Source: Planctomycetota bacterium (lineage in GTDB: Bacteria > Planctomycetota > UBA1135). From it: a stretch of 64,000 nucleotides of DNA. Where the stretch lies: contig JBMYYH010000001.1 in NCBI GenBank assembly GCA_049609225.1, forward strand, positions 6,352 to 70,351. Direction: 5' to 3'. The position numbers and the translations under genes are program-made. Of this stretch, positions 4,733 to 55,341 are shown piece by piece (position 1 is the first letter of the stretch; each line of letters starts with the position of its first letter). Below the pieces are notes generated by a model that was not told the origin of the DNA, did no database searches, and saw nothing but the letters and a program-made list of their open reading frames with translations.

Positions 4733-7062
4733 TGGCAGCACGCGACCAACATGGTTCGGAGGCACCCTGGGATCAGGGTTTCCGCGTCGTCGGGCATGGC
4801 AATCGCAAGGTGGATGGCCTGGCCAAGGCCACCGGCGAGGCCGTGTACACCGATGACATCCAACTGCCCGGCATGCTGCACGCGAAGACTTTGCGTTCGC
4901 CGCACGCGCATGCACGGATTGTGTCGATCGACACTTCCAAGGCAGAGGCCCTGCCGGGTGTCTTGGGTGTGCTCGTGGGTTCGGAGATGCCGATCAAGTA
5001 CGGCGTGATCCCTTGGACCCCGGATGAGAATGCGCTCGCCACCGACAAGGTCCGTTTCATCGGCGATGAAGTGGCTGCCGTCGCGGCGGTTGATGAGGAT
5101 ACGGCGAATGAAGCCGTCGAACTGATCGAGGTCGAGTATGAAGTGCTCGATGCGATCCTGGAACCGGAGCAGGCCTTGGTTACTCCGGAACCGCCGATTC
5201 ATGAGGACCGTAAGCGTCGCGACAACATCTCCAAGCATGTGGACTTGGAGTTCGGCGATGTCGAAGCGCAAGTCGCAACGGCCGACGTGGTGGTGGAAGA
5301 TGACTACTCTTTCCACAGCACCAGTCATACACCGATTGAGCCGCATTGCGCGGTTGCACAATTGGGTGCCGATGGGCGCCTGACCTTGTGGTCCTCCACG
5401 CAGATCACGCACTATGTGCATCGTGCCCTGGCACGCGTGTTGGAGATGGAGCCGGCTAAGATCCGCGTCATCCAGCCTTGTTTGGGCGGTGGCTTCGGCG
5501 GCAAGTCGGATCCCTTCGCTCTGGAGTTCATCGTCGCGCAGTTGGCGCGCAAGACCGGACGTCCGGTCAAGATGCTGTGGACCCGCGAAGAAGTGTTCTA
5601 TGCGCATCGCGGGCGTCACCCGATGAAGATGCATTACCGCACCACGGCCAAGGCAGATGGCATGATCACTGGCGTCGATGCGAAGCTGTTGATCGATGGC
5701 GGTAGCTACTCCAGCTTCGGCCTGGTGACCACCTACTACTCCGGTCAGTTATTGACTGGACCGTACTCCTTCCCGAACTACCGTTTCGACAGCACGCGGG
5801 TGTTCACCAACAAGCCGCCGAATGGACCGAAGCGTGGACATGGTTCGGTGCAGCCGCGTTTCGCATTCGAAGTGCAGTTGGATGAGATCGCGACCAAGCT
5901 TGGCGTCGATCCGATCGAGATCCGCCGACGCAATTACCTTGGCGAGCATACGCATACCGTGAATGGGCAGCGGATCACGTCGAATGGCTTCCTGCAGTGC
6001 CTGGAGGAAGTGGAGAGCGCGAGTGATTGGAAGACGCGGCACGGCAAGTTGCCGGAAGGCCGCGGACTAGGTGTGGCCGGATCGATGTACATCTCCGGCA
6101 CCAACTATCCGGTCTACCCGAACAAGATGCCGCAAGCTGGCGTGCAGTTGAAGATCGACCGCAGTGGTCTGGTCACGGTGTTCACCGGCGGCAACGACAT
6201 CGGTCAGGGATCCAACTCGATGGTGGCTTACCTCGTCGCTGAGGAGTTGGGCATTCGACCCGAAAGCATCAAGGTAATCGCCGCGGATACGGATCTGTGC
6301 CCGGTGGACCTCGGGGCCTACTCCAGTCGCGTCACCTTCATGGTCGGCAATGCCGCGATCGACGGCGCCCGCAAGTTGCGTCATCAGATCGTGGAAGCCG
6401 TCGCGCGCCACTGGGAAGTGGAGCAACGCGATGTTCGTCTGATGGACGGCACCGTGGTCGACCTGAGTGATGCCGCGCGGTCGATGGATCATGTCGAGGC
6501 TTTCCACCTGGCGGAAGAGATGTTCGACACACTCGGCTCCACCGGTAGCTACAACACCCCGACTTTGGGTGGGGATTATCGCGGCGGCACCATCGGTGCT
6601 TCGCCGGCGTATTCCTTCACCGCGCATGTGGCCGATGTCGATGTCTGCACGGAAACCGGGCGCATTACCGTCAACAAGGTTTGGGTCGCGCATGACTGCG
6701 GTCGTGCCCTCAACCCGACCATCGTGCGCGGGCAGATGGAAGGCTCCACCTACATGGGTGCGGCCGAAGTCGTGCTCGAAAGCCATCACCTGAACCGATT
6801 TGGCCTGCATGCCGGGCCGTCCCTGCTCGACTATCGCATTCCGACTTCGGTGGACACGCCGGACCTGGAAGCGCGCATCGTCGAGAGCATCGATCCGGAA
6901 GGTCCGTTCGGGGCGAAGGAAGCGGGTGAAGGTCCGCTGCACTCCACCATCCCGGCGATCGCCAATGCGGTTTTTGATGCGGTCGGCATTCGCCTTCGTC
7001 ACCTACCGTTCACCCCCGCCAAGGTGCTTGCTGCCTTGCGCGCCAAGGAGGAGCAGGCCTGA
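4732..7062 (+). CDS. xanthine dehydrogenase-family molybdopterin-binding large subunit (HcrA-like)
   Basis: 776 aa with the family motifs CLGGGFGGKSD and FGAKEAGEGPL (catalytic Glu loop). Translationally coupled to both flanking subunit genes. Confidence 0.9.
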   Translation: MAARDQHGSEAPWDQGFRVVGHGNRKVDGLAKATGEAVYTDDIQLPGMLHAKTLRSPHAHARIVSIDTSKAEALPGVLGVLVGSEMPIKYGVIPWTPDENALATDKVRFIGDEVAAVAAVDEDTANEAVELIEVEYEVLDAILEPEQALVTPEPPIHEDRKRRDNISKHVDLEFGDVEAQVATADVVVEDDYSFHSTSHTPIEPHCAVAQLGADGRLTLWSSTQITHYVHRALARVLEMEPAKIRVIQPCLGGGFGGKSDPFALEFIVAQLARKTGRPVKMLWTREEVFYAHRGRHPMKMHYRTTAKADGMITGVDAKLLIDGGSYSSFGLVTTYYSGQLLTGPYSFPNYRFDSTRVFTNKPPNGPKRGHGSVQPRFAFEVQLDEIATKLGVDPIEIRRRNYLGEHTHTVNGQRITSNGFLQCLEEVESASDWKTRHGKLPEGRGLGVAGSMYISGTNYPVYPNKMPQAGVQLKIDRSGLVTVFTGGNDIGQGSNSMVAYLVAEELGIRPESIKVIAADTDLCPVDLGAYSSRVTFMVGNAAIDGARKLRHQIVEAVARHWEVEQRDVRLMDGTVVDLSDAARSMDHVEAFHLAEEMFDTLGSTGSYNTPTLGGDYRGGTIGASPAYSFTAHVADVDVCTETGRITVNKVWVAHDCGRALNPTIVRGQMEGSTYMGAAEVVLESHHLNRFGLHAGPSLLDYRIPTSVDTPDLEARIVESIDPEGPFGAKEAGEGPLHSTIPAIANAVFDAVGIRLRHLPFTPAKVLAALRAKEEQA

Positions 7063-8217: not shown

Positions 8218-10092
8218 ATGGATCTAACAACCGTCCTCCTACTTACAGCAGTTTTTACCCCACCCCAGAATTCCGATCAGACTGTTCCGCAGCACGAGAA
8301 ATTCCTGGAAGCCGAGCTGCACCACCTTATTGAAAACGCTCCTCTGAATGAGCGGATTCACGTCGACCTGGTTTTCCGCACGCAGCCAGACTTTGCTGCC
8401 ATGAAGCAGGAGCTCGGCGCGATGGACCCGAAGAAGCTGCCGATGGCACTTCGCACGCGCGCCCTCGAGATCGCGCTTCCGGAACAAGCGGAAGCCATGA
8501 CCCTGCTGGTGCAATATCAGAAAGATGGTCTTGCCGATCAGGTCAAGCCACTGTGGCTGACCAACGTCATCGGCGTCAACACCACGGCGGATGTGATCCT
8601 GGAGCTCGCGGCTCTGGAAGACGTCGCCTATGTGCACTATGACCCGCCGCGTGAAGGCACCTTGCTCTCCACCACTACCGGCACCCCGACTTGCGACCAG
8701 GATCGCATCAACTCGCCTTGGGCTTGGAAGCACATGAATGCCATCGGCCAAGACATGGTCGTTGCGGTCATCGACACGGGTACGTGCTACACCCACCCCG
8801 ACTTGGCCAACAACATCTGGGTGAACCCCGGCGAAGACCTCGGCGGGGATGGCATCGTTTGGGATGCCAACGACATGAACGGCATCGATGACGATGGCAA
8901 TGGTCATGTCGACGACCTCATCGGTTGGGCTTTCGACCACAACACCACCACGCCGAATGATCCGATGGACCACGGCAGCCATGGTTCCCACACTTCGGGT
9001 ACCGTCGCTGGTGATGGCACCGGTGGCACGCAAACGGGTGTCGCTCCCGGCGCCAAGATCATGCCCCTGCGCAACTCCACGCTGATCACGCATGAGATCG
9101 AAGTGTGGCAGTGCATGCAGTACGCCATGATGATGGATGCCGACGTCATCTCCATGAGCCTCGGTTGGATTTCTTCTTGGTCCCCGGATCGCGCCATGTG
9201 GCGTTCCAACTGCGACAACGTCCAGGCTGCAGGAACCATCATGGTGATTGCTGCGGGTAACGAGGCCGGTTGGACCACGACCGAGAACATCCGGACTCCA
9301 GGCGATGTGCCTGATGTCACCACCGTCGGTGCGACCAACTGCAGCGACGTCCTGGCCAGCTTCAGCTCGATCGGTCCGACCGAATGGGCAAGCGTCGCGG
9401 GATACAACGACTTCCCCTATCCTCCGGGATTGATCAAGCCGGACATCAGTGCTCCTGGCTCGAACACCAAGTCGACCTTCATTTGCAGTGGTTACACCAG
9501 CATGTCGGGAACCTCGATGGCAACGCCTCACGTCGCAGGTGCTGCAGCAGTGCTGCGCTCCTTGCGTCCGGACATGGATGTGGCCGAAGTGAAGGCTGCT
9601 TTGATGGCCACGAGTCGTGACCTTGGTCCGGCAGGCATGGACAATGACTTCGGTGCTGGGCGTCTCGACGTCCGCGCCCTGGTCGCAACCTATGCTCCAC
9701 TGCGCGCCGATGTGTACGCCGTCAGCCAAAGCGCCGGTGGCACCATCAACCTCACTCTTGAGGCGACCGCCGCACGCGCCGGTCAGGATTACTGGGTGCT
9801 GGCTTCCGCTTCCGGAAACACTCCTGGCGTGAGCTACCTCGGTGGCGTGACCATTCCGCTGAACCCGGACATCGCGCACAACCAGTCGATCGCACTGGCG
9901 AATACCGCGACCTTCACCAACAGCAATGGCGTACTCGATGGCGCCGGCAACGGCAGCTGCACCATCAATGTCGCTGCAGGTTCCCTGCCGACGAGCTTCA
10001 TCGGACGCACGCTGTCGTTCGCCTACGGAACTCTTTCCGGTGGCACCGTGGTCTACGCTTCCAACCCGGTCAACATCGACATCCTGCCGTAG
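8218..10092 (+). CDS. secreted subtilisin-like serine protease (peptidase S8) with C-terminal beta-rich domain
   Basis: Catalytic triad motifs VAVIDTGTCYTHPDL (Asp), HGSHTSGTVAG (His) and SGTSMATPHVAGAAA (Ser). C-terminal ~125 aa are the recurrent CTD described in findings. Confidence 0.9.
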   Translation: MDLTTVLLLTAVFTPPQNSDQTVPQHEKFLEAELHHLIENAPLNERIHVDLVFRTQPDFAAMKQELGAMDPKKLPMALRTRALEIALPEQAEAMTLLVQYQKDGLADQVKPLWLTNVIGVNTTADVILELAALEDVAYVHYDPPREGTLLSTTTGTPTCDQDRINSPWAWKHMNAIGQDMVVAVIDTGTCYTHPDLANNIWVNPGEDLGGDGIVWDANDMNGIDDDGNGHVDDLIGWAFDHNTTTPNDPMDHGSHGSHTSGTVAGDGTGGTQTGVAPGAKIMPLRNSTLITHEIEVWQCMQYAMMMDADVISMSLGWISSWSPDRAMWRSNCDNVQAAGTIMVIAAGNEAGWTTTENIRTPGDVPDVTTVGATNCSDVLASFSSIGPTEWASVAGYNDFPYPPGLIKPDISAPGSNTKSTFICSGYTSMSGTSMATPHVAGAAAVLRSLRPDMDVAEVKAALMATSRDLGPAGMDNDFGAGRLDVRALVATYAPLRADVYAVSQSAGGTINLTLEATAARAGQDYWVLASASGNTPGVSYLGGVTIPLNPDIAHNQSIALANTATFTNSNGVLDGAGNGSCTINVAAGSLPTSFIGRTLSFAYGTLSGGTVVYASNPVNIDILP

Positions 10093-10106
10093 TACAAGGT
10101 TCCCCC

Positions 10107-12824
10107 TTACGACCCGTCGCCTTGAGGCGGCGGGTCGTTTTTCAATGCGTGGATATGGACATCCCGCTGAGGGAATGCGATCACAATACCTAGTTTGCGG
10201 AAGGCATCATCGATGGCCTCATGGAGCCGATCGACAATTTCGGCCCAGTATTCCCGATTCCCGATGAATACCCTCAATTGGAAGTCTAGGCTGCTTTCCC
10301 CGAATCCTCGGAAGATCGCGACGGGCTCAGGGTCTCCCAGTACGAGGGGTTCTTCGCGGGCGCATTCAAGGAGGGCTCGCCTTACGGAATCGGTGTCGGA
10401 CCCATATGCGATCCCGACGGGAACGATGATTCGAGTTACAGGATCGGTCAGGGTCCAATTGATCACACGTTGGGTAATGAACTCTTTGTTGGGGACCAGC
10501 ATTTCCCGGCGATCATAATCCTGGATAGTGGTGGCCCTCATACGCAGCTGCATGACCTTCCCCTCCGAATCTCCTACGGTCACGATATCTCCTACGCGTA
10601 TCGGGCGCTCGAAGAGGATAATAAGCCCCGAAACGAAGTTCGCAAAAATCTCCTGGAGGCCGAAGGCCAAGCCGAAAGTGAGAGCGGCGGCCAACCACTG
10701 CAACTGATTCCAGCCGACCCCGATGACATGGAAGGTGGAGCCAAGGCCTACCAGCAGGACAAAGTAACGAATCAAGGTTGTGGCGGCGTAGCGTGTTCCG
10801 CCATCAAGGGGGAGTCGTTGAAGAAGCGTCAACTCGAGCAGGGCCGGCAGGTTCCTTGCGAAAAGTAAAGTCACTATTAGCGCCACTGCCGCCAGCAGAA
10901 TCTCACCAAGACTCAGGGGGTTGGCCGCCGCAGCTGTCGAAGCCATGGCTACTTCACCCTCCGTCAAACCATCTCGGGCAAGCAACGGCAGGGAGACGCG
11001 GTCGCTCCTTTCGGAGGAAGGAGCACCCTCCTCGGCCACTTGATTGGCCGCACCGCCGAATGTCGGCCACACCTCGAAATCGTTTAGGTTACTCAGGGCT
11101 GGGAATATGCCTCGCCAAAGGAGGAAAAGGCCTATGATCGTGGTTAAGGTCAGCGCGCTTCGGAACAACCGCCTAGTTTGGGCATCGACAGTCGGGATAT
11201 CCACATGATCCATCTCCTGCGAGGCAAAATCGCCACTGACACCTAGTTCGGATCTCTCATCGGCGGAGGCACGTGCGGCTCTCGCTTCCAAGGCCTGGGC
11301 AAGGGCAAGTTGCCGCCGTGCGACGGCCAACCATCGATACAACAGCCCCTGGACCAGGAGAAGGACCGCCATCAACAGGAAGGTGGAGGCGAAAAGGACC
11401 AGGAATCGCTCGACCGTGAAGACGAAACCGAGGAAAGCCGCAACGCATAAAGCAAGTGGTACCCCTACACCCAATACACGCCAAAGCGGCCGCCATCTAA
11501 GGGTTATGGTGGTCTCCGATTGGGCAGGATCCTTTGCCGGGAACGCCCGCAAGACACGAAAAGTGAACAACGCAAGGGCCGTAAAAATGATCATGCATCC
11601 GAGCCTCCCCAATGTTTCACTCAGTGATCCCGCTTGCGCCGGGAAAGCGATGAGCATCCCTGCGAGCCAAACCGGCTCCGACCAACGCATCTCCGCGATA
11701 AGGCGCCCGCTCGTTCCCGGATGCCAATGGAAGTGTATGGGGACGAGGCCGGCTGGCTCCAGTGCCCGGGTGATCACCCGGAAAAGAAGCCAAGCCTTGG
11801 CCACGGATTGAAGCTGTGCACCAATTGCCCAGGTGGTGGCATCTCCTGAATCCTGGACTATTCCACCAAATACCCAAAGGAATAAGGGCAGCGGTAGTGC
11901 CAAGCAAACAGCAGCCCCGAGTGCGAAAATAGTCTTGCGGAAGTGGTCCGTCCGGACATGGCGAATGCAGGCATTCCATTCCATTCGTTTCACGAGCAAA
12001 ACCTTCCTGCGAAGAACAAGGGCGGTTGCGAAGGCGACGCCGAAAAGCCAGGCGAAGCGCCGGCCAGGTGTTGATTCCGACCAGGCCCTGCTGACACTAA
12101 ACTCCGCAAAGGACCGGATTATCCGTAAGGAGTCCGTGCCAATTGCGGCGAACCACTCGGCAACGGTTTGATTGGAACTGCGAATCCAAAGGACATTCTC
12201 GTCGATAAAGTTACGGTAATCCACGACTGCGAGCTCCAGTTCGCGGACCAACTCCAGGGATCTGGTCTTGACCGCAATCACCTTTTCGAGCTCCTCTAGT
12301 CTCTCCTTGGCGAGTCTATCCCGCATGCCGAATAGCTCCTCGAACCTGGATTCGGATTCCCCGCCGAAACTTCGCAGCAACGCCTCCGGCGAGCGGGCAT
12401 CCCCCAGGGATGCCGTCATCCAATCCACCAGGTCGTACCGAGCGATTTGTGTCGTGGCCAGGTCCATTTGAGCCTCAGACCTAAGGCGCCGTAAATCCAC
12501 GGCCTCAGGTAGCCATTCCGAATCTCGGCGAAGGATGCTACCGGTACTGGAAGACATACCGGCTGTCTCGACCCTCTTCATGGAAATAAGGAGGCGTCGC
12601 CTGACCTCCGCTAGCTGCCTCCGGATCCTGGCCTGCTCCTGCTCCGCGATGCGTAAGTGAGCTGGAGAGCCCATGGAAAACGTCTCCAGGCCTTGAAGAT
12701 AATCCACATCCGACTCAATGCCCTCGACGATGGCAGGTGGTTCCTGCTCTTGGGCGAAAGTAGGTGCGGCAATCTGCCCCTGCACCAACAGCAGGGTCAA
12801 GTAAACCATTCGGCGGGCGATCAT
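10107..12824 (-). CDS. large mechanosensitive channel, MscK/KefA-like (MscS family)
   Basis: C-terminal MscS core FANFVSGLIILFERPIRVGDIVTVG...VMQLRMRATTIQDYDRREMLVPNKEFITQRVINWT. Multiple upstream TM helices, and an N-terminal signal peptide plus coiled-coil region. Confidence 0.85.
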   Translation of the reverse strand: MIARRMVYLTLLLVQGQIAAPTFAQEQEPPAIVEGIESDVDYLQGLETFSMGSPAHLRIAEQEQARIRRQLAEVRRRLLISMKRVETAGMSSSTGSILRRDSEWLPEAVDLRRLRSEAQMDLATTQIARYDLVDWMTASLGDARSPEALLRSFGGESESRFEELFGMRDRLAKERLEELEKVIAVKTRSLELVRELELAVVDYRNFIDENVLWIRSSNQTVAEWFAAIGTDSLRIIRSFAEFSVSRAWSESTPGRRFAWLFGVAFATALVLRRKVLLVKRMEWNACIRHVRTDHFRKTIFALGAAVCLALPLPLFLWVFGGIVQDSGDATTWAIGAQLQSVAKAWLLFRVITRALEPAGLVPIHFHWHPGTSGRLIAEMRWSEPVWLAGMLIAFPAQAGSLSETLGRLGCMIIFTALALFTFRVLRAFPAKDPAQSETTITLRWRPLWRVLGVGVPLALCVAAFLGFVFTVERFLVLFASTFLLMAVLLLVQGLLYRWLAVARRQLALAQALEARAARASADERSELGVSGDFASQEMDHVDIPTVDAQTRRLFRSALTLTTIIGLFLLWRGIFPALSNLNDFEVWPTFGGAANQVAEEGAPSSERSDRVSLPLLARDGLTEGEVAMASTAAAANPLSLGEILLAAVALIVTLLFARNLPALLELTLLQRLPLDGGTRYAATTLIRYFVLLVGLGSTFHVIGVGWNQLQWLAAALTFGLAFGLQEIFANFVSGLIILFERPIRVGDIVTVGDSEGKVMQLRMRATTIQDYDRREMLVPNKEFITQRVINWTLTDPVTRIIVPVGIAYGSDTDSVRRALLECAREEPLVLGDPEPVAIFRGFGESSLDFQLRVFIGNREYWAEIVDRLHEAIDDAFRKLGIVIAFPQRDVHIHALKNDPPPQGDGS
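10110..10142 (+). terminator. intrinsic terminator candidate for the S8 protease gene
   Basis: A 12-bp stem (cgacccgtcgcc / ggcggcgggtcg, one G-U pair) with loop ttga, followed by ttttt. Starts 18 nt after the S8 stop and lies inside the last codons of the convergent channel gene. Confidence 0.5.
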
Positions 12825-13924
12825 GACTTTCTACCTAACCAACCCAGTTTGCGGAAAAGGGCAAGTAATCCGACGACCAGGACCACATTGACCACCCAGA
12901 ACGCCAAGTATCCGAACCGCCAATGGAGTTCCGGTAAGTTCCAGGGCTCCGTCGTATCAAAGTTCATCCCGTAGATTCCCGCGATGAAGGTCAGTGGGAT
13001 GAAAATCGTACTGACAATGGTGAGGACCTTCATGACCTCATTGGTCCGTTGCCCGACCAGGTTCAAATGGGCGTCCACTAGACTTGCAGCCAGGTCACGG
13101 TAACTCTCAATTACCTCCAAGGTCTGGGTCAAGTGGTCGAGGGTGTCTCTGAGATGTAACTGGTGCTGTTCCCGAACCGGGGAATCGCCTGATTTCGATA
13201 GGGAGTGCAGGACCTCGCGCATTGGCCAGGCCGAACGACGGAACAGCGCCAGGTCACGCCGGATCCCATAGATCTCCGACAGCACCTCATGATCCTGGCC
13301 ATCAAGGACACGATCCTCAAGGTCATCAAGGCGGTCCCCATACTCTTCAAGGATCGGGAAGTACCCATCAACGACGGCGTCCAGGATCATGATGGCAAGG
13401 TAATCCGCACCGCCAGACCTGATTGCCACCCGTCCTCGATGGAGGCGGTCTCGGATACCCGATAACCCAGTGAGGCCAGGCTCATGCACCGTGAGGAGAA
13501 GGCCTTCCCGAAGGAATAGACTGACCTGGGTCCACTCCAGATGCCCTTCTTCATCCAGGAGGAAGGCCCGCAGTGCCAGGAAATGGAAATCCTCATAAGG
13601 CTCCACCTTTGGCCGCTGACCGATGTTCTGCGCATCTGCAAGAGCCAATGGATGAAACTCGAGACGCTCACATAACTCCGCCAGAGCAGTGCCGTCTCCA
13701 AGCCCTTCGACATCGATCCATTGAACCCATTCCGGTTCCAGTGGATATTGAAGCCCAGTGACCACACATTGATCATCCTCTCGGAGCTCCGTGGAGTGGT
13801 ACTCCATGATCCGGACGACGCTCGACTTGGAGGGCTCAAGTCCATCGGTGACCAGGTTTCCAGGAGGCGCTCCAGGCTTCGTGAAGGCGCGACGGAATAG
13901 CTTCGAATTTTTCCTATTTGCCAC
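12821..13924 (-). CDS. corA: magnesium/cobalt transporter CorA
   Basis: 367 aa with two C-terminal TM helices and the signature YGMNF (IAGIYGMNFD). Its stop overlaps the next start (ATGA at 12821-12824). Confidence 0.9.
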   Translation of the reverse strand: MANRKNSKLFRRAFTKPGAPPGNLVTDGLEPSKSSVVRIMEYHSTELREDDQCVVTGLQYPLEPEWVQWIDVEGLGDGTALAELCERLEFHPLALADAQNIGQRPKVEPYEDFHFLALRAFLLDEEGHLEWTQVSLFLREGLLLTVHEPGLTGLSGIRDRLHRGRVAIRSGGADYLAIMILDAVVDGYFPILEEYGDRLDDLEDRVLDGQDHEVLSEIYGIRRDLALFRRSAWPMREVLHSLSKSGDSPVREQHQLHLRDTLDHLTQTLEVIESYRDLAASLVDAHLNLVGQRTNEVMKVLTIVSTIFIPLTFIAGIYGMNFDTTEPWNLPELHWRFGYLAFWVVNVVLVVGLLALFRKLGWLGRKS

Positions 13925-14363
13925 CTGCCATCACCTCCAGCAATAACGCGGCTTGACCTCCGGGATCATCGGCTGCCATGGCGTGCTCGATAATTCCATC
14001 GGGACCGATCACGAATGTGTAACGCTGTGCATATTGGTCCCGCACATCCTTCACGGCACCGAAAGCGAGACATACGGAGCGGCTCTCGTCCGAAAGCAGC
14101 TGAAAAGGAAAGTCGAACTTGTTGCGGAATGCCGCATTCTCGGTGACAGCATCCACCGATACGCCGAAGACGAGGATGCCACGCTCCTCGAAATCCTGGA
14201 TTCGATCACGGAACCCTTGGCCTTGCTTCGTTCAGCCTGGGGTGTCTGCTTTCGGGAAGAACCACAGGACCGCCCGACGTCCGCGAAGATCCCCTGCGGT
14301 GACAGGGAATCTATTGCAGTCGAGGGCGGAGAAGTCAGGACAGGGAGAACCGGGGTTCAGCAT
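13914..14363 (-). CDS. bcp: Bcp-type peroxiredoxin with in-frame TGA (candidate selenocysteine) at the peroxidatic position
   Basis: Track ORFs 14232-14453(-) and 13914-14156(-) are in the same frame. Read-through gives MLNPGSPCPDFSAL...VLWFFPKADTPG[TGA]TKQGQGFRDRIQDFEERGILVFGVSVD..., aligning with the FYPKxxTPGCT motif. TGA at 14232-14234. Start ATG at 14363 chosen by alignment logic. Confidence 0.75.
14198..14216 (-). promoter_or_regulatory. candidate bacterial SECIS hairpin downstream of the bcp TGA
   Basis: The mRNA GGGUUC-CGUGAUC-GAAUCC forms a 6-bp stem (one G-U pair) with a 7-nt loop. It starts 16 nt after the UGA, and CC/GG pairing could extend the lower stem. Confidence 0.4.
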
Positions 14364-14406
14364 GGTCGGTGGGCCTTTAAGAAACCTGGAGAGGAAGGTG
14401 CGGAGC

Positions 14407-15069
14407 ATGGAAGCCTCGTCCCCTACGATAACGCCTGACATGCCGAAGCCCACCTTGCTCTACATCGCGGATCCCATGTGCAGCTGGTGCTGGGGATTCG
14501 CCCCGCAATTGCGGCGGATTCGCGAGGCCCTGCCGCATTTGCCGGTGCGGATCGTGCTTGGGGGCCTGGCGCCGGACACCGAGGAGCCCATGCCGTCGGA
14601 CATGCGCCGCTATGTGCAGCAGGCCTGGGACGCGGTGGAAACGACCGCAGGAGTCTCCTTCAATCGGGAGTTCTGGGATGGGCGGCATGCGGACATCCGG
14701 CGCTCCACCTACCCCGCTTGCCGCGCCGTAGTCCTGGCCCGCACGGAGGGCAAGGAGATGGCCATGTTCGATGCGATCCAACGCGCCTATTACCTCGAGG
14801 CGCGCAACCCGAGCCGTGCCGATGTCCTCGCGGACTGCGGCGAGGCCATCGGGTTGTCCTTGGGGCGGCAAACGTTCCTGGAATCCCTGCATGCATCGAC
14901 CACCCAATCCATGCTCGAGGCGGACCTGCAGTTGCGCGGTGCACTCGGCGCGAACACCTTTCCCAGCTTGGGGCTGATGGGTACGGGACTGCCCGAGCCA
15001 GGATTGGTCCTCCACCGCGGTTGGGGAACTGCGAAGGAGCTGGTGCCACGTCTCGAGGCGAGCCTCTAG
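14407..15069 (+). CDS. DsbA-family thiol:disulfide oxidoreductase-like protein
   Basis: Thioredoxin-fold motif LLYIADPMCSWCWGF (CxxC). Divergent from bcp. The long track ORF starting at 14119 was trimmed; start is 14407 or 14440. Confidence 0.8.
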   Translation: MEASSPTITPDMPKPTLLYIADPMCSWCWGFAPQLRRIREALPHLPVRIVLGGLAPDTEEPMPSDMRRYVQQAWDAVETTAGVSFNREFWDGRHADIRRSTYPACRAVVLARTEGKEMAMFDAIQRAYYLEARNPSRADVLADCGEAIGLSLGRQTFLESLHASTTQSMLEADLQLRGALGANTFPSLGLMGTGLPEPGLVLHRGWGTAKELVPRLEASL

Positions 15070-35059: not shown

Positions 35060-35155
35060 GATTTGGCAAGCGGTGATTTCGCTCCTATGTCATGGTAGCA
35101 ATCCTGCACCCGAGGCCCACGCCTCTCCCCTCGACCCGCGCCCCCAACCCATACG

Positions 35156-39054: not shown

Positions 39055-41640
39055 CTACTGCCCGACGAGCGCGCGCAAGCCGTGGCTCATCGACCAACCG
39101 AACAACATGTTGGTGTCTCGCATGGCAGCCTGCAGATAACGCTCGACTCCGATGAGTCCTGCATTGTTCGGGATTGACAGCTGCGTCGTCGCGACGCCCT
39201 GTGCATTCGCCACCAATCCGGTGCGGTAGATCTCCTGCGCGACATCGACAAGCACATCTCCACCGAGGAGAGTCGTGTCATCCTCCGCCAACGAGACGGA
39301 AAGGAATCCCGTCGCACCGGGCTCTGCACCTTCCACCGTAATCGTGACGGTATCCCCTAGCAGCGGCTGTGCACTTGCGGAGAGCGTCAGGACATTGGGC
39401 GAAGTGCGCAACTCCCCATATGGGAAGAATCCAGGCGTGTTCGGCGCATAGTCCCAGACGCCGCGCCCGTAGGTGCCGAAGCGAATCAGGTTCTGCGACG
39501 GCACCGATTCCACCGACCAGTAGGTCGTCAGGGGTGCATCGCCATCAAGGATGCTGTGCCATTGATCGCTGCTCGGATCGAACTCCCATGCCCCTGTCTC
39601 CGACGCCGCGTACATCCGGCCACTGCCATCAGCGGCTTCGCAGATGTCGTACACCAGGGTGTTGGGCAAGCCATCGCTCATGTCGACCCAAGTCGCACCA
39701 CCATTGGTGGATCGCAAGACCGGTGCATTGGAGTAACCGGCGCCGGCGATCCAGACCGTATCGACATCGGTCGAAGAGGCGACGATGGAGCTGCCGTAGA
39801 AGTAATGTGCGCCCGGTCCGCCACCGGACTGGAACTGCCACGAAGTGCCGCCCGTCTGCGAAGTGTAGATGTTGCCGACACTGGTCACGCAGATCGCGAA
39901 GTCGGGATTGATCTTCGAGAACTCCAGGGAAGTCACCGGCTGCCCGAATGGATTGGGGTGCAAGGCGGTGTAGTTCCAAGTACCGGAAAACCCAACGCGC
40001 TCATAACGCCAGATGGTCTTGCCGCAAAGGTAGAACACCGGATTCGAAACGGGATCGGCCACGAGGAAAGGCAGCCATTGTCCCGCGAAGCCCGTCGGGA
40101 AGTCGGCGGTGTAGAGTGCCGGGCTGGGCGCGTGCGCCGTGATCAACACGAAGCCCGGGTAATCGGAGTAGACCAGGCCATGGCCGCCGTCGGCCGAACT
40201 GATGTGGCCATAGTCACCGGTGATCTCTTCGATGAAATCAGCCCATGGTCCGGAGGTACCGGGTGTGCCGAGGACCGTGGTCTGATAACCCTGGTCCTGC
40301 GACCCGGCGTGAAGGTATTCGGGATTGCGTCGGCTGGTGTGCGTGCTGTAGTACTGGCTCACGCCCATGCCGGAGTAGCTCAACCAATCGGTGGTGCTCA
40401 TCTGATCCACACTTTCATAGGTGCCGCCGTGCGTATTGATGAACCAACGTTCGCCGCTGCTTAGGGAGGCGTCGGCGATGACGGAGATGCCCATGATGTC
40501 GGCGTGCAGTTTGCCGTAACGATCGGCGGGATGTTCCCACCATGGATTCTGCATGCTGAAGCTGGTGCCGCCGTTGTGGCTGACCCACATCTCCACGCCG
40601 CCATAGGCCACGAGGTCAGCGTCGGTGGCGGAGGTACAGAATGCACTCCACATCTCGGGCATGTCATTGCGGTAAGACCAACTGCTGGCGCTATTGGTGG
40701 TACGCCACAACTCCCATCCGCCGCCATCCTTCAACGCCAGGCTGAAGGTGGAGGAAGCGCTCGACTCATGTCCACCGAGTCGGACATCCGTCGGTGAGAA
40801 GCCGAGGGCATTGCCGTAGGTATTGAAGTTGAGACCGGCGTCGGTGGAACGATAAAGACGGTCGTCTTCGAATAGGAAGACGTCGCCGGCGGTGGTGCGG
40901 TCGGTGAAGACATCCGCAGTGCCGGAAACGCTTCGCGCCAAGGTGAAGCTCGCGCCGCGGTCGACGGAACGGTAAAGCTTCCAACCGCCTTCATCGATCA
41001 ACAGGAAGATGGTCTGTTGCGCATCATCTCGCTTCAGGAAGCGGCGAATGCCACCGTAATTTCCAAGACCCGCAGGTTCGTGCCAGGTCATGCCGTTGTC
41101 GGTCGAACGCCAAATCGCGCCGTGGGTGCCGCGCAACATGATGTCGTCGCCCCCGCCTGCAGCTGGAATGGCGAGCAGATGTTGCGCTCCGCCATAGACC
41201 CCATCCCCTACAGCTTCCCAGGCACTGCCATCCTTAGGCCCGCGGAAGACGCCACCATGCGCCGAGCCGACGTACAACTCCGTGCCATCACTCGAAAGCA
41301 CGCTCACGAACACGCTACCGGCAAGGTTACTACTGCCGACTTCATTCCAAGTGCCGGTGGTCACCGCACGCGACATCAGCGCCGCTTCTCGTGCTTGCAT
41401 CGCTGCAAGACGATTGCGCTCTTCTTCCGCCCGCCAATCAAATCCGGGTGCGGCGCGGTGCATCTCCTCGATCCAAGCGAGGCGTTCGGCATGACTATCC
41501 TCACCTTCTTCGAACCCTGCTGGGCGCGGCAAAGGAGGTGTGTAGCCATCATCCATCGCCTCCACACCAGTGCAGGAGAGTATGGTCAGGCTTCCACCTA
41601 GGGTAAGGGCGGAAATTCTGAAGGTAGGGACCATCGCCAA
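39055..41640 (-). CDS. secreted BNR/Asp-box repeat beta-propeller protein (GH74/sortilin-like) with recurrent C-terminal domain
   Basis: Asp-box motifs STDNGMTW, SVDRGASF, STDAGLNF, SHNGGTSF, SQTGGTSW and STNGGATW. Signal peptide present. CTD at 39058-39395. Confidence 0.8.
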   Translation of the reverse strand: MAMVPTFRISALTLGGSLTILSCTGVEAMDDGYTPPLPRPAGFEEGEDSHAERLAWIEEMHRAAPGFDWRAEEERNRLAAMQAREAALMSRAVTTGTWNEVGSSNLAGSVFVSVLSSDGTELYVGSAHGGVFRGPKDGSAWEAVGDGVYGGAQHLLAIPAAGGGDDIMLRGTHGAIWRSTDNGMTWHEPAGLGNYGGIRRFLKRDDAQQTIFLLIDEGGWKLYRSVDRGASFTLARSVSGTADVFTDRTTAGDVFLFEDDRLYRSTDAGLNFNTYGNALGFSPTDVRLGGHESSASSTFSLALKDGGGWELWRTTNSASSWSYRNDMPEMWSAFCTSATDADLVAYGGVEMWVSHNGGTSFSMQNPWWEHPADRYGKLHADIMGISVIADASLSSGERWFINTHGGTYESVDQMSTTDWLSYSGMGVSQYYSTHTSRRNPEYLHAGSQDQGYQTTVLGTPGTSGPWADFIEEITGDYGHISSADGGHGLVYSDYPGFVLITAHAPSPALYTADFPTGFAGQWLPFLVADPVSNPVFYLCGKTIWRYERVGFSGTWNYTALHPNPFGQPVTSLEFSKINPDFAICVTSVGNIYTSQTGGTSWQFQSGGGPGAHYFYGSSIVASSTDVDTVWIAGAGYSNAPVLRSTNGGATWVDMSDGLPNTLVYDICEAADGSGRMYAASETGAWEFDPSSDQWHSILDGDAPLTTYWSVESVPSQNLIRFGTYGRGVWDYAPNTPGFFPYGELRTSPNVLTLSASAQPLLGDTVTITVEGAEPGATGFLSVSLAEDDTTLLGGDVLVDVAQEIYRTGLVANAQGVATTQLSIPNNAGLIGVERYLQAAMRDTNMLFGWSMSHGLRALVGQ

Positions 41641-41714
41641 AAGGATACCCCATATTGCCGGAACTGGCTGTTCGTTCCAGGGTTACGCCTTTGTCCGCTT
41701 CCCTAGCAGAGCCC

Positions 41715-43373
41715 ATGATCAAGACCCTAACGACGACCCTACTTTGTATTTCTGGCCTTACGGCAACCGCTGCAGCGCAAGGCCCACCCTTAATGCCGCC
41801 GCCCACGCCGCCGCAGAACCCATACACCGCAGAGAAGGCCGTCTTGGGCAAGATGCTGTTCTGGGAAGAGCAACTCTCCTCCGACGACACTATGGCTTGT
41901 GGAACTTGCCACACCGTGACTGCCGGTTTCGGCGATAACCGTATCGGCATCCACCCTGGCCCCGATGGCATCCAAGGCAACGCGGACGACATCTTCGCTT
42001 CCCGCGGTGTGCGTCGAGCGGACCATGATGGCAGTTATGCGGAAGATTCCACTTTCGGTTTGGATGTGCAAGTCACCGGCCGTCGTACGCCTGAAATTTT
42101 CGCGGCGCTTTATGCACCCGAGACCTTCTGGGATGGCCGTGGTACCTCCAGCTTCACCGACCCCGAAACTGGCATCGTCACCATTCCTTTCGGTGCTGCG
42201 CTCGAGAGTCAGGCTATCGGCCCGATCCTGAATGATGCTGAAATGGCGCATGAATCGGTGGATTGGGCGGAAGTCACGGCAAAGCTGGCCTCCGCACGCC
42301 CCATGGCCTTGGCCACCGATCTGACGCCCGACATGGTCGCGGCCCTACTCAGCTCCCCGACCTACCCAGAGTTGTTCCAGGATGCCTTTGGGACTTCCGA
42401 TATCACTGCGCAACGCATCGCTTATGCGATTGCCACCTACGAGCGCACTTTGATTCCGGATGAATCACCTTGGGATCTGTTCAATGCTGGCGATCCACTC
42501 GCCATGACTCCGAACCAGATCGCGGGCTGGAACCAGTTCAACACCATCGCGAACTGCAACCAGTGTCATACCCCGCCGATGTTCACGGACAACCAGTTCC
42601 ACAACCTCGGTTTGCGTCCGAGTACCGAAGACGCTGGCCGCCAAGACGTGACGGGGCTGTTCGCCGACCGCGGCAAGTTCAAGACTCCTTCGCTACGCAA
42701 CGCGGGCCTGCGTACTCGCTACTTCCACAACGGTTCCGAACTGATCCTCGACAACGGCCCGGCCCCGGGTGGTGTCGACATGGTTTACATCAATGGTGGT
42801 GGAGCCTTCCGCGACAATCTCGACCCATTGTTGGTCCCCCTGGCCGGACGCCCAGGCATCAACATGCAACAGATCATGGATTTCGTCGCAAACGGGCTGA
42901 CGGATCCACGCGTGGAAAACGCTCTGCCTCCGTTTGATAAGCCGACCCTTTTCAGTGAAGCGAATCCAGCCGGTGCCATCCGCTTCGGACCCTCCAACAT
43001 GGGCGGCAACGGCGTGACCCCGACCCTCATCGTGAACACTCCAGCAGCTCTGGGTAGTACTTCCTTTAAGGTAGGGCTGGAAAACGCGCCAGCCACTGCG
43101 AGCATCGCCTGGCTCGGCCTTTCCCGCGCTGCCGGCAGCGGCACCCTGGTGAATGGTGTGCCGTTCAACCTCGGTGGCCCGGTCGACCTGTGGAAGACCT
43201 CCTCCCTGCAGACGGATAGCTCCGGGCTCGGATACGCCACTTTCCAGATCGACATTCCCAGCCAAGCCGGCCTCCTAGGCATGGATTTCCACGTCCAGGC
43301 CTTCGTCGAAGACCTTTCGGCCCCTGGAGGCACCGGAGCCGCCACCCGCGGAGCCACTTTTACGGTGCTTTAA
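41715..43373 (+). CDS. di-haem cytochrome c peroxidase (CCP/MauG family) with recurrent C-terminal domain
   Basis: Signal peptide and two CxxCH motifs (ACGTCH, NCNQCH). CTD at about 43011-43370. Confidence 0.9.
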   Translation: MIKTLTTTLLCISGLTATAAAQGPPLMPPPTPPQNPYTAEKAVLGKMLFWEEQLSSDDTMACGTCHTVTAGFGDNRIGIHPGPDGIQGNADDIFASRGVRRADHDGSYAEDSTFGLDVQVTGRRTPEIFAALYAPETFWDGRGTSSFTDPETGIVTIPFGAALESQAIGPILNDAEMAHESVDWAEVTAKLASARPMALATDLTPDMVAALLSSPTYPELFQDAFGTSDITAQRIAYAIATYERTLIPDESPWDLFNAGDPLAMTPNQIAGWNQFNTIANCNQCHTPPMFTDNQFHNLGLRPSTEDAGRQDVTGLFADRGKFKTPSLRNAGLRTRYFHNGSELILDNGPAPGGVDMVYINGGGAFRDNLDPLLVPLAGRPGINMQQIMDFVANGLTDPRVENALPPFDKPTLFSEANPAGAIRFGPSNMGGNGVTPTLIVNTPAALGSTSFKVGLENAPATASIAWLGLSRAAGSGTLVNGVPFNLGGPVDLWKTSSLQTDSSGLGYATFQIDIPSQAGLLGMDFHVQAFVEDLSAPGGTGAATRGATFTVL

Positions 43374-43421
43374 GCCCTTTTTTGGGCCCTCGCCCTCCAG
43401 GAATCCTGGAATGCGACTTCC

Positions 43422-43458
43422 AACCATCCCCATGGTCTTAAAGACTTTGGGGATGGTT
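43422..43458 (+). terminator. strong hairpin downstream of first peroxidase gene
   Basis: aaccatcccca / tggggatggtt forms an 11-bp perfect stem around a sub-hairpin (gtctt aa agac). Only a weak T-run follows (cattccgtttta). Confidence 0.35.
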
Positions 43459-43584
43459 CATTCCGTTTTATGGGGTACTATTGGTGGAACATTCTTGGTG
43501 AATTGCCGTCATCTTTAAGTAGGCCGCCCTTGCCTACAGCTGTTTCAGGCTGTTTCCAAACCATCCCAAGTCCCCCGCTCCCGC

Positions 43585-45222
43585 ATGCGACTACCCATTC
43601 TTTGCACAACCCTGGCCGTGGCTGCCATCTTTGCTGGCAGTGCCAACGCTCAGCTCGGTCCGCCCCCGCAACCGCCCGAGAACCTCAGCACTCCTGAGAA
43701 GATTGTTCTCGGCAAGATTCTCTTCTGGGATGAGCAGCTCTCGTCCAACAACGAGACCGCCTGCGGTACCTGTCACATCCCGCGTTTCAGCTTTACCGAC
43801 AACCGCGAGTTCATCCACCCGGGTGCGGATGGCATCGTGGGTTCGCTGGATGACAACATCACTTCGCCAGGAGTGGTGCGGGCCAACGCGAACAAAAGCT
43901 TCGTCCCGACGCCATTGTTCGGCATGTCGCCACAGCTGACCCGTCGTCGTACCAACGACATCTTTGGTTCGCTCTACCAGGATCGCATCTTCTGGGATGG
44001 TCGTGCGGAAGACACCTTCCACGATCCGGAGACGGGTGCCGTCAGCATCGTGACAGGTGGCGCTTTGGAAAGCCAAGCCGTGGAGCCGATCATGTCGACG
44101 GTGGAAATGTCTCACATCGACCGCACTTGGGATGATGTGCGCGACAAGCTGACCGATGCGATCCCGCTGCGTCTTGCCACCGATATCCCACCGGATATGG
44201 CTGCTGCGATCGCCCTCGATCCGACTTACCCGGATCTGTTCGAAGCCGCTTTCGGCACGACCGACATCAACGCCGAGCGCATTGGTTTCGCGATTGCCGC
44301 CTACGAACGTGAACTGGTCCCGGACCAGACTCCATGGGACGACTTCATGAACGGCGACGCCAACGCTATGACTCCCGACCAGATTGATGGTTGGAACCAG
44401 TTCAACGGCATCGCCAACTGTCACCTCTGCCACACTCCTCCGATCTTCTCCGACGGCGATTTCCACAACAACGGCATGCGCCCGACCGTGTGGGATCCAG
44501 GTCTCCAAGAGACTACCGGCGATGTCAACGACCGCGGCAAGTTCAAGACTCCTTCCCTGCGTGGTGCTGGTCTGCGGACGAGCTTCTACCACGGTGGTTA
44601 CTTCCAAGAGCTTTGGCCGATCGGTGTGACCAACATCTACTGGGGTGGTGGCGGCGGATTCTCCGACAACCGCGACCCACTGCTGGTACCACTCATGAAC
44701 GTGCCTGGCATCGACATGGAGCACATCATGGATTTCGTCGGCAATGCGCTGACGGACCCACGTCTGGAAGCCGAGACCTTCCCCTTCGATAAGCCGACCC
44801 TGTTCTCGGAGCGCACGCCGTTCTCGACGAACCTTTACGGCGAGGCGAACCCAGGAGCTACGGGTGTGGAGCCAAAGATCACGGCGCACATGCCTGCGAT
44901 GCTCGGCGAGACCTTCCGTATTGCCGTCAGTGAAGGCAAAGGCGGTGTTCTGGCTCACTTCGGAGCTTCCGGTGCACCAGGTTCCGGCCTGATGCGCGGT
45001 GGTCGCATGATCAACATCGCGCTGCCGATGATGGAGTTCGTCACCCTGCCGTTGCCAGGCTCTGGCGATACCGACGGCTGGCGTTCGATCGAGTTCGTCA
45101 TTCCGGATCGCGCCAACCTCGTCGGCCGCAACTTCTACATGCAGTGGTGGGTCGAAGATACGGGAGCACCGGGTGGCGTCGCATCGTCGACCAAGGGTGC
45201 GATCATCGAGATCCTGCCTTAA
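43585..45222 (+). CDS. di-haem cytochrome c peroxidase paralog with recurrent C-terminal domain
   Basis: Collinear with the previous gene: TPEKIVLGKILFWDEQLSSNNETACGTCH and NCHLCH. CTD at about 44863-45219. Confidence 0.9.
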   Translation: MRLPILCTTLAVAAIFAGSANAQLGPPPQPPENLSTPEKIVLGKILFWDEQLSSNNETACGTCHIPRFSFTDNREFIHPGADGIVGSLDDNITSPGVVRANANKSFVPTPLFGMSPQLTRRRTNDIFGSLYQDRIFWDGRAEDTFHDPETGAVSIVTGGALESQAVEPIMSTVEMSHIDRTWDDVRDKLTDAIPLRLATDIPPDMAAAIALDPTYPDLFEAAFGTTDINAERIGFAIAAYERELVPDQTPWDDFMNGDANAMTPDQIDGWNQFNGIANCHLCHTPPIFSDGDFHNNGMRPTVWDPGLQETTGDVNDRGKFKTPSLRGAGLRTSFYHGGYFQELWPIGVTNIYWGGGGGFSDNRDPLLVPLMNVPGIDMEHIMDFVGNALTDPRLEAETFPFDKPTLFSERTPFSTNLYGEANPGATGVEPKITAHMPAMLGETFRIAVSEGKGGVLAHFGASGAPGSGLMRGGRMINIALPMMEFVTLPLPGSGDTDGWRSIEFVIPDRANLVGRNFYMQWWVEDTGAPGGVASSTKGAIIEILP

Positions 45223-45818: not shown

Positions 45819-45844
45819 TGTAACGTCTAGCGTGCTACGGTGTC
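45819..45844 (+). promoter_or_regulatory. candidate ECF-type promoter upstream of first sigma-fusion gene
   Basis: TGTAACG-N12-CGGTGTC ends 10 nt before ATG 45854. A near-identical element lies upstream of the paralog. Confidence 0.35.
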
Positions 45845-45853
45845 CCTAATGCG

Positions 45854-48646: not shown

Positions 48647-48656
48647 GAACACCCTC

Positions 48657-48683
48657 TGTAACGGATTCGCTGCTGGCGGTGTA
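48657..48683 (+). promoter_or_regulatory. candidate ECF-type promoter upstream of second sigma-fusion gene
   Basis: TGTAACG-N13-CGGTGTA ends 10 nt before ATG 48694. Confidence 0.35.
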
Positions 48684-48693
48684 TTTCCTCCTG

Positions 48694-55200: not shown

Positions 55201-55341
55201 GCTTTCGGCCGACGCCTCGCTTTCGCCGACCGCAGCTTCAATCGCCTCGCCGGGCGTTTCCAAGTAGCCGGCATGCATCACTTGGCGCTGTACTTCGCCA
55301 AGTTCCAGGACCGCTTCCAGCAGCCTAAGGCGCAACACTAG
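52240..55341 (+). CDS. CRTAC1/ASPIC-family FG-GAP repeat protein with UnbV_ASPIC and C-terminal TlpA-like thioredoxin domain; in-frame TGA (candidate selenocysteine) at 54025-54027
   Basis: Track ORFs 52240-54027 and 54046-55341 are in the same frame. Signal peptide and FG-GAP/VCBS repeats (GDVNGDGLDDLYV, DLDNDGDQDLV, DIDNDGDVDLYVAN, DVDDDGDLDILVTN, DINNDGLEDIYSPNGF). Then ...NSDDL[TGA]SFFWRRVTSQSP... followed by the UnbV_ASPIC region (DWDGDGRVDLLLRNRNAPRLRLLRN...SNRDAIGARV...GEGFLSQNS) and LINFWSTTCASCIEEF. Confidence 0.7.
54036..54064 (+). promoter_or_regulatory. candidate bacterial SECIS hairpin downstream of the CRTAC1-like TGA
   Basis: CUGG-CGGCG-CGUGA-CGUCG-CAAUCU-CCAG: lower 4-bp stem, upper 5-bp stem (one G-U pair) and 5-nt loop. 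The loop starts 18 nt after the UGA. Confidence 0.35.

Follow-up and report, generated by a model that had tools for sequence, protein, structure and literature searches.

A probable selenocysteine-containing PrxQ/Bcp peroxiredoxin of a Planctomycetota lineage, stored in public databases as fragments

Peroxiredoxins with a TxxU motif, in which selenocysteine (Sec) takes the place of the peroxidatic Cys (Sec-Prx, COG1225), have been a standard bacterial selenoprotein family since 2001-2005 (PMC1088965, PMC5029168, PMC13188914). A 2006 survey counted 12 Sec-Prx selenoproteins, three of them in Anaeromyxobacter dehalogenans (PMC1794560), a 2016 survey recorded peroxiredoxin selenoproteins in 78 organisms (PMC5029168), and the family is included in a 2026 review (PMC13188914), which, in the passage citing Sohling et al., refers to the purification of a Sec-peroxiredoxin from Eubacterium acidaminophilum in 2001. 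Here, we explored a window of 64,000 nucleotides (nt) from a Planctomycetota bacterium (the whole stretch of DNA that was analysed; contig JBMYYH010000001.1 of assembly GCA_049609225.1), in which a peroxiredoxin gene of the PrxQ/Bcp type on the minus strand (14408..13914) carries an in-frame TGA (14232..14234) at the codon for the peroxidatic residue. We put at about 0.9 the probability that this is a functional selenoprotein gene, in which the UGA would be a Sec codon served by a hairpin located downstream. A literature search on Planctomycetota and selenoproteins yielded nothing specific.

The gene shares with the TxxU Sec-Prx family described by Zhang, Gladyshev and co-workers (PF00578) the fold, the T-x-x-U motif with predicted Sec in place of the peroxidatic Cys, and a candidate Sec insertion sequence (SECIS) element within the coding sequence just 3' of the UGA. 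By contrast, it comes from a lineage of Planctomycetota metagenome-assembled genomes (MAGs), with database entries split into fragments, and it has a 15-residue N-terminal extension, a Cys in an N-terminal P-C-P motif and Gln at position +5 after the Sec. Given that COG1225 is the Bcp/PrxQ group to which the known TxxU selenoproteins belong, the member is new and the kind is known; the window gene is, thus, an incorrectly annotated addition to a well-known selenoprotein family. No new biological principle is involved, T-x-x-U Sec-peroxiredoxins being among the commonest bacterial selenoproteins. What the reading brings is that a gene and its close relatives, stored publicly as meaningless fragments of 58-87 residues, are restored to a complete antioxidant enzyme when the TGA is taken as Sec. 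PrxU of E. acidaminophilum likewise has Sec as the peroxidatic residue and is the experimental precedent for the Sec chemistry, but represents a different peroxiredoxin subfamily with a 233-position profile; the window protein scores 34.4 bits against the PrxU model NF040737, for which the cut-off is 270, and is not a PrxU orthologue.

Protein family and conservation of the TGA

Translation of the minus strand from 14363 to 13914 shows a single interruption of the open frame, the TGA at 14234..14232, and in the list of open reading frames (ORFs) those at 14232..14453 and 13914..14156 fall in one frame with no second stop between them, as an earlier note on this DNA had maintained. The peptide around the TGA also agrees with the one quoted there (VLWFFPKADTPG-stop-TKQGQGFRDRIQDFEERGILVFGVSVD...FPFQLLSDES; in longer context, VLWFFPKADTPG-stop-TKQGQGFRDRIQ), and the underlying minus-strand codons are GTC CTG TGG TTC TTC CCG AAA GCA GAC ACC CCA GGC TGA ACG AAG CAA GGC CAA GGG TTC CGT GAT CGA ATC CAG.

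Profile searches were run on the translation with Cys substituted for the internal stop. The Pfam families AhpC-TSA (PF00578; E = 5.3e-30, profile positions 2-123 of 124) and Redoxin (PF08534; E = 1.9e-16) were retrieved, and the best NCBIfam families were Bcp (thioredoxin-dependent thiol peroxidase, NF006960) and PrxQ (NF053650), both under their equivalog cut-offs (89.3 vs 140 bits and 76.2 vs 260, respectively). Thus, judging from these scores, the window protein is a member of the PrxQ/BCP subfamily rather than an orthologue of E. coli Bcp in the strict sense. Its best matches among solved structures are all PrxQ/BCP (5enu, 3drn, 2a4v, which is yeast Dot5, and 5iiz, a Xanthomonas BCP; E = 1e-21 to 1e-15), and their TPGC aligns with TPG-U of the window protein. 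The active-site motif P-x-x-x-T-x-x-C(U) is present as P-K-A-D-T-P-G-U, and the catalytic Arg is conserved (Q-R-Y-T-F-V-I in the window vs E-R-S-T-F-L-I in 5enu). In both the protein and the structure alignments, the TGA column is Cys in the Cys-containing homologues, so the assignment of the TGA to the peroxidatic Cys of Bcp, made in the earlier note together with the proposal to check it by alignment, stands. More generally, the protein resembles E. coli Bcp, Xanthomonas campestris BCP and plant PrxQ (PDB 5enu, 3drn, 2a4v, 5iiz, 3gkk) in the F-(Y/F)-P-K-x-x-T-P-G-C-T motif, the catalytic Arg and a size of about 150-160 residues, and would differ from them in using Sec where those enzymes have a catalytic Cys.

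A search of 5.8 billion proteins recovered full-length Cys homologues with at most 52% identity to the window protein. The closest database proteins, at 67-71% identity, are all C-terminal fragments of 81-87 residues, with one further fragment of 101 residues. In every contig that encodes such a fragment, the in-frame TGA recurs and the N-terminal half of the enzyme lies ahead of it, which is why the database entries end up as C-terminal fragments; the expectation that automated annotation would break the gene up is, therefore, borne out by the way the relatives are stored. The lineage comprises seven distinct genes, namely, that of the window and L001a, L001b, L003, L009, L010 and L013, with protein identities of 53-84% to each other. 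In the six genes outside the window (five loci), the TGA is at the same codon, the hairpin is kept and the protein is conserved on both sides. Independent assemblies contain identical copies of several of these genes (L003-L008, L010-L012 and L001/L002).

Beyond this lineage, we scanned one genome per species for the pattern T-P-G-TGA-T-x-x-G-x-G-F-R-D, which was matched in at least 120 species genomes from many phyla. Among the matches listed are Acidobacteriota, Actinomycetota, ten Planctomycetota MAGs, Alpha-, Gamma- and Deltaproteobacteria, Myxococcota, Marinimicrobia, Rokubacteria, Binatia, Gemmatimonadota, SAR324 and an Anaeromyxobacter MAG; peroxiredoxin coding continues past the TGA in all of those listed but L043 and L122. 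These observations bear directly on the simplest rival explanation, that the TGA arose by inactivating mutation or through an error in sequencing or assembly, the gene being a pseudogene annotated as two fragments. Gene callers do split the gene, and one family member, L043, has an additional TAG ten codons past the TGA and may be decayed. Conversely, six other diverged lineage genes have the same TGA under purifying selection on both sides, the TGA is repeated in the independent assemblies and across the species genomes, and a covarying hairpin with frozen codons, described below, is not expected in a pseudogene. The earlier note had allowed for a lone error, with intact Cys codons in close homologues; the relatives nearest to the window have, instead, the same TGA. 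Accordingly, we regard an error or a pseudogene as having next to no chance of being the correct explanation.

Far from likely, too, is the possibility that the UGA mainly terminates translation, such that the functional products are an N-terminal peptide of 58 residues, a C-terminal fragment with its own initiation, or both, and the hairpin is a regulatory or stability element. In every bacterial selenoprotein, termination at the UGA has to compete with insertion. In E. coli, Sec insertion competes with RF2 and is only about 30-40% efficient (PMC4513850), and under selenium limitation a truncated product would be expected. However, neither fragment amounts to a complete peroxiredoxin fold, as the TGA separates the active-site Thr-Pro-Gly from the downstream catalytic Arg. 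Moreover, protein-level conservation extends over the segment from the TGA to the first possible restart codon, T-K-Q-G-Q-G-F-R-D-R-I-Q-D-F-E-E-R-G-I-L-V-F-G-V-S, which can be aligned with the full-length Cys homologues.

Three individual loci deserve separate mention. In L043 (OZ241744.1, a Binatia chromosome, about 5808..5840), the additional TAG (TPG-stop-TTEGRGFRD-stop) interrupts the region of the 3' arm of the hairpin, and this is possibly a decaying copy of a selenoprotein gene. L045 (CAMBFS010000005.1), labelled 'MAG: Klebsiella pneumoniae', encodes a Sec-PrxQ with a class B hairpin (see below) and differs by one base over the 45 nt after the TGA from L115, a deltaproteobacterial MAG from Lake Baikal; the L045 contig looks mis-binned or mislabelled. 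Finally, L001 (and, identically, L002) contains tandem Sec-PrxQ genes (9236..9760 and 9764..10246), both of which have a TGA and a hairpin of their own. The first of the two begins with MMKRALLWTFLLGIAAC, which resembles a lipoprotein signal peptide; if this reading holds, the pair would combine a periplasmic or membrane-anchored Sec-peroxiredoxin with a cytoplasmic one.

RNA-level selection on the hairpin

The bacterial SECIS element is defined on E. coli fdhF as a hairpin shortly 3' of the UGA that has G and U in its apical loop and is bound by SelB. The hairpin of the window gene (14198..14216, minus strand; 5' arm 14216..14211, GGGUUC; loop 14210..14204, CGUGAUC; 3' arm 14203..14198, GAAUCC) is separated from the UGA by 15 nt, with the helix at +16..+34, and its region encodes G-F-R-D-R-I-(Q). 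As with fdhF, it lies inside the coding sequence with a constant spacing to the UGA, and the constraint is on RNA structure, not on the sequence of the stem; counted from the U of the UGA, the G-U of its loop comes at 23-24 nt, a spacing that we take to correspond to G23/U24 of fdhF. In contrast to the fdhF element, it has a 6-bp stem, a 7-nt loop and no bulged U.

Altogether, 125 distinct Sec-form sequences were obtained among the matches listed, and 124 of these have the hairpin in one of a few registers. The window type, class A (GGRUUC-7 nt-GAAUCC and variants), accounts for 64 sequences, and class B (GGUYSCGG-GUU-CCGSGACC) for 48. In 11 others, the 3' arm of the class A hairpin is moved by one base, and these variants covary as well, GGAUUC being found with GAAUUC and GGGUUC with GAACUC. 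One sequence (L077) has a larger loop with a C-G compensation (GGCUUC...GAAGCC), and one (L086) has an imperfect hairpin. Two alternative hairpin designs, thus, serve the same UGA position in the Sec-PrxQ family. Class B presumably resembles the upper stem-loop of the fdhF SECIS in sequence and in distance from the UGA, and is more fdhF-like than the window hairpin. Class B sequences (in the L014-L133 set) have Cys, Arg or Ser, and in one case Leu, at +5, and two sequences, L093 and L108, fit both designs perfectly.

For the 64 class A sequences, the helix is the only consensus structure returned by RNAalifold. Its third pair is G-U in 28 sequences, A-U in 22, G-C in 13 and C-G in one, with no A-C combination (Fisher p = 0.002), and the covariation score exceeds 500 of 500 shuffles and every slid register. 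The most powerful test concerns codon choice, for which the Sec and Cys forms of the same peptide provide a natural experiment. A metagenome scan for this peptide with TGY in place of TGA yielded 41 distinct Cys-form sequences, which we compared with 63 Sec forms. The Phe codon is TTC in all 63 Sec forms but is split between TTC (22) and TTT (19) in the Cys forms; the first Arg codon is CGT in 58 Sec forms vs CGC in 31 Cys forms, the Asp codon GAT in 49 vs GAC in 33, and the second Arg codon CGA in 53 vs CGC, the commonest in the Cys forms, in 15. A perfect hairpin is found in 61/63 Sec forms and 3/41 Cys forms (p = 2e-22). Likewise, in the seven lineage genes, a single codon is kept in none of the 48 invariant columns of degenerate residues outside the hairpin, as opposed to five of six inside it (p = 2e-6). 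Given that Sec forms keep the hairpin codons frozen while Cys forms let them drift, the RNA structure is under selection only where the codon is TGA, which is the signature of a SECIS element. Together with the presence of TGA and hairpin in the six other lineage genes and in the species genomes, this substantiates the candidate selenoprotein that the earlier note had proposed. The protein family, the position of the TGA, its conservation, and the RNA-level selection and covariation on the hairpin are directly supported by the data.

Several observations nonetheless weigh against the Sec reading. The hairpin is where the earlier note had placed it and is present in the minimum-free-energy fold of the region, but the fold energy of the 71-nt region is ordinary (z = -0.57, with 51 of 200 shuffles equally good), so that the hairpin of this single sequence is no evidence by itself; it is the comparison with the relatives that places it well outside the reach of chance. 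No Rfam match was obtained at gathering thresholds in the whole window, nor at E <= 10 in 14100..14300. The third pair in the window is a G-U wobble, whereas the six closest relatives have A-U. The six core pairs are paired in 100% of the class A sequences (64/64), a percentage inflated by the fact that class A was picked by pairing (at least 5 of 6 pairs); given the shuffle and slide controls and the hairpin groups, the class A signal is no artefact of this selection. The remaining points concern the decoding machinery. ARAGORN detected no tRNA gene in the 64-kb window, and Pfam scans found no SelA, SelB or SelD among about 60 of its ORFs. Similarly, related loci totalling 1.37 Mb, examined with aragorn and with tblastn using E. 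coli SelD and SelB as queries, gave no selA, selB, selD or tRNA-Sec; two SelB-like tblastn matches in these loci were identified with Pfam as BipA/TypA and IF-2. The absence of sel genes from the window, which covers 64 kb of the genome, and from the related loci says little.

The lack of observed Sec machinery in the window and the related loci is also what would favour a different recoding, in which the UGA is read as a standard amino acid (Trp, Cys or Arg, by a near-cognate tRNA) or TGA is reassigned throughout the genome, with the hairpin only stimulating read-through, as downstream hairpins can do elsewhere. Genome-wide reassignment is excluded by the adjacent CorA gene, which stops at TGA straight after a full-length Pfam match, and by the Ser/Thr kinase gene, which stops at TGA before a separate Fer2 (ferredoxin-like) gene. 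Against non-Sec recoding of this particular codon stands its location at the family's catalytic Cys, a position that can function with nothing other than Cys or Sec, as well as the 48 class B hairpins among the matches listed, which we take to resemble the fdhF SECIS. Furthermore, the same arrangement occurs in the Anaeromyxobacter MAG, and this genus includes a species documented as using Sec (PMC1794560). We therefore consider recoding to a standard amino acid highly improbable, marginally more so than predominant termination at the UGA.

Predicted decoding, catalysis and gene start

Under the Sec reading, the ribosome would reach the UGA as codon 59, and the hairpin 15 nt downstream, inside the coding sequence, would function as a bacterial SECIS element, to which SelB-GTP with Sec-tRNA(Sec) would bind, inserting Sec and avoiding termination by RF2. 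The predicted product is a cytoplasmic thiol peroxidase of the PrxQ/Bcp type with Sec as the peroxidatic residue. Placed in the P-x-x-x-T-x-x-U pocket together with the conserved Arg (in QRYTFVIG), the selenolate of Sec59 would attack the hydroperoxide and be converted to a selenenic acid. Decoding through SelB and tRNA-Sec, the selenium content of the protein and its recycling route are what we infer by analogy with described systems.

Cys-containing PrxQ enzymes mostly have a resolving Cys at +5, as in E. coli, or at about +36, as in X. campestris. In the window protein, position +5 after the Sec is Gln (U-T-K-Q-G-Q vs C-T-V-Q-A-C of E. coli Bcp); the Gly that the earlier note assigned to the resolving position is at +4. 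Across the lineage, the +5 residue is Q, H or N, and Cys is found there in only 30 of 120 Sec-form sequences among the matches listed; the column of the X. campestris resolving Cys is occupied by Arg in the window. The lineage lacks Cys both at +5 and at the other two columns where many relatives carry it. With Gln at +5 and no Cys at the other known PrxQ resolving positions, the window enzyme probably works by a 1-Sec mechanism with an external reductant. Such a 1-Sec peroxiredoxin would be recycled by an external thiol oxidoreductase, either thioredoxin or glutaredoxin or, possibly, the DsbA-like C-S-W-C protein encoded next to it. Alternatively, the Sec could be resolved by the lineage-specific Cys of the N-terminal P-C-P (14340..14332). 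The latter two options, with the DsbA-like neighbour as reductant and the P-C-P Cys as resolving residue, are offered as hypotheses. The P-C-P Cys replaces the usual Ala of the N-terminal G-x-x-A-P-x-F motif and occurs in 6 of 120 Sec-PrxQ sequences among the matches listed.

The absence of a resolving-position Cys, the 15-residue extension, the P-C-P Cys and the usually adjacent gene for a DsbA-like C-S-W-C protein could be taken together to mean that the Planctomycetota lineage is a mechanistically distinct Sec-PrxQ sub-class, with a two-gene module of a Sec-peroxidase and a DsbA-type redox protein that is undescribed for PrxQ. Here, the P-C-P Cys could form a selenenyl-sulfide and the DsbA-like protein could be a dedicated reductase. 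We consider this interpretation doubtful, although less so than any of the three rival explanations of the TGA.

The earlier note had the gene begin at an internal ATG (14361..14363), which is Met16 of a longer model. The conserved upstream peptide and the ATG that gene callers choose suggest that the gene probably starts 45 nt upstream, at the ATG at 14406..14408, for a coding sequence (14408..13914) of 164 codons plus the TAG stop (13916..13914), with Sec as residue 59. A putative Shine-Dalgarno-like GAGG (14414..14417), read from the sequence, is 5 nt upstream of ATG 14408; unlike this ATG, the internal one is not preceded by such a motif. The longer model adds the 15-residue extension MLRTFLSRFLKGPPT. 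The peptide MLRTFL(S/F/R)R(L/F)(L/F)(K/V)G.P.M is kept in L001b, L003, L009 and L010 and, in looser form, in L013, and its codons differ synonymously among the relatives (Ser TCC/AGC, Arg AGG/CGT); in L001b and L010, a stop is located two codons upstream of the start of the extension. The extension (MLRTFLSRLLKG.P.M; 14364..14408, minus strand) is conserved in L001b, L003, L009, L010 and L013.

Gene neighbourhood and a second candidate selenoprotein

Divergently transcribed from the peroxiredoxin gene is a gene for a DsbA-family thioredoxin-fold protein of 209 amino acids with a C-S-W-C motif (14440..15069, plus strand; Pfam Thioredoxin_5 E = 4e-10, DSBA E = 7e-7), the start codons of the two genes being 31 nt apart. 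The DSBA gene also adjoins Sec-Prx in L001/L002 and L009, is separated from it by one DUF1801 gene in L003-L008, and is not found beside it in L010-L013; a role of the neighbour as redox partner of Sec-Prx is possible. The 31-nt spacer holds CGTTATCGTAGGG (14420..14432 in the window, minus reading; 9199..9211 in L001), which is common to the window and L001/L002 and may be a shared regulatory or leader element. More broadly, the window is syntenic with the contigs of the relatives, the shared genes including PGDH, an ECF sigma factor, a Ser/Thr kinase, a xanthine-dehydrogenase-type trio, an S8 peptidase, the DsbA-like protein, DUF1801, PhoD and type II secretion. On the other side of Sec-Prx, its TAG stop falls within the initial codons of the CorA ORF (GTG 13924), with an 11-nt overlap (13914..13924) that suggests co-transcription or translational coupling of the two genes. 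Relative to L001, L003 and L010, in which S8 peptidase or xanthine-dehydrogenase-type genes directly follow Sec-Prx, the CorA and MscS genes are inserted in the window.

The Planctomycetota lineage of the window is a probable Sec user, and this affects the reading of every other in-frame TGA in these genomes. One such case is a gene for an FG-GAP/ASPIC-TlpA fusion protein of about 1030 residues (52240..55341, plus strand), with an in-frame TGA at 54025..54027. Besides a signal peptide, the protein has FG-GAP repeats, UnbV_ASPIC and, at its C-terminus, a TlpA/ResA-like domain with C-A-S-C. Its database relatives include more than 60 C-terminal pieces (about 45-99% identity), which begin immediately past the TGA. 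At the DNA level, five other lineages keep the TGA and a GC-rich hairpin that starts 8-11 nt downstream, and in one lineage a double change closes an internal mismatch in this hairpin; independent assemblies of the species of the window itself also keep both (the relative loci are L134, L135, L136, L182, L183, L184, L185 and L186). One reading of the hairpin is GCGRCG-CGUGA-CGUCGC, with the register being ambiguous after RNAalifold on six loci. In the context NSDDL-stop-SFFWRRVTSQSP, read as DDL-U-SFFWRRV, the residues that follow the TGA, SFFWRR, correspond in position and sequence to SFFWRQ of distant homologues that are not split, and hence translation continues through the TGA; the column of the TGA itself is N, S, A, D, E or M in these homologues, not Cys. 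The family is covered by no NCBIfam model, and no FG-GAP/ASPIC selenoprotein is listed in the 2026 review (PMC13188914) or in the literature searched. The fusion protein is, thus, apparently a second candidate selenoprotein, undescribed so far, which appears to be missing from current selenoprotein catalogues.

The occurrence of a conserved in-frame TGA with a hairpin in this gene, in the same window, counts as indirect support for the Sec reading of the peroxiredoxin. A scan of the 64 kb for TGAs open on both sides and followed by a hairpin with a GUGA loop returned exactly these two sites, under criteria that were derived from the two themselves. A generic scan for TGAs open on both sides gave 162 candidates and was too noisy. 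Two other TGA-separated pairs were rejected as recoding sites: the kinase/Fer2 pair at 4184 represents adjacent separate genes, and the ORF upstream of AraC at 35092 belongs to adjacent or unrelated genes.

Two further gene groups on the plus strand lie upstream of the FG-GAP/ASPIC-TlpA gene. At 41628..45222, two tandem genes for di-haem cytochrome c peroxidases (CCP_MauG) are followed by a GNAT acetyltransferase gene, and at 45824..51486 there are two tandem genes for proteins of about 940 residues, each with N-terminal ECF sigma-70 regions 2/4 and a long C-terminal part with a weak CarboxypepD_reg match. Peroxide-related genes and unusual sigma-factor fusions, thus, lie near both candidate selenoprotein genes.

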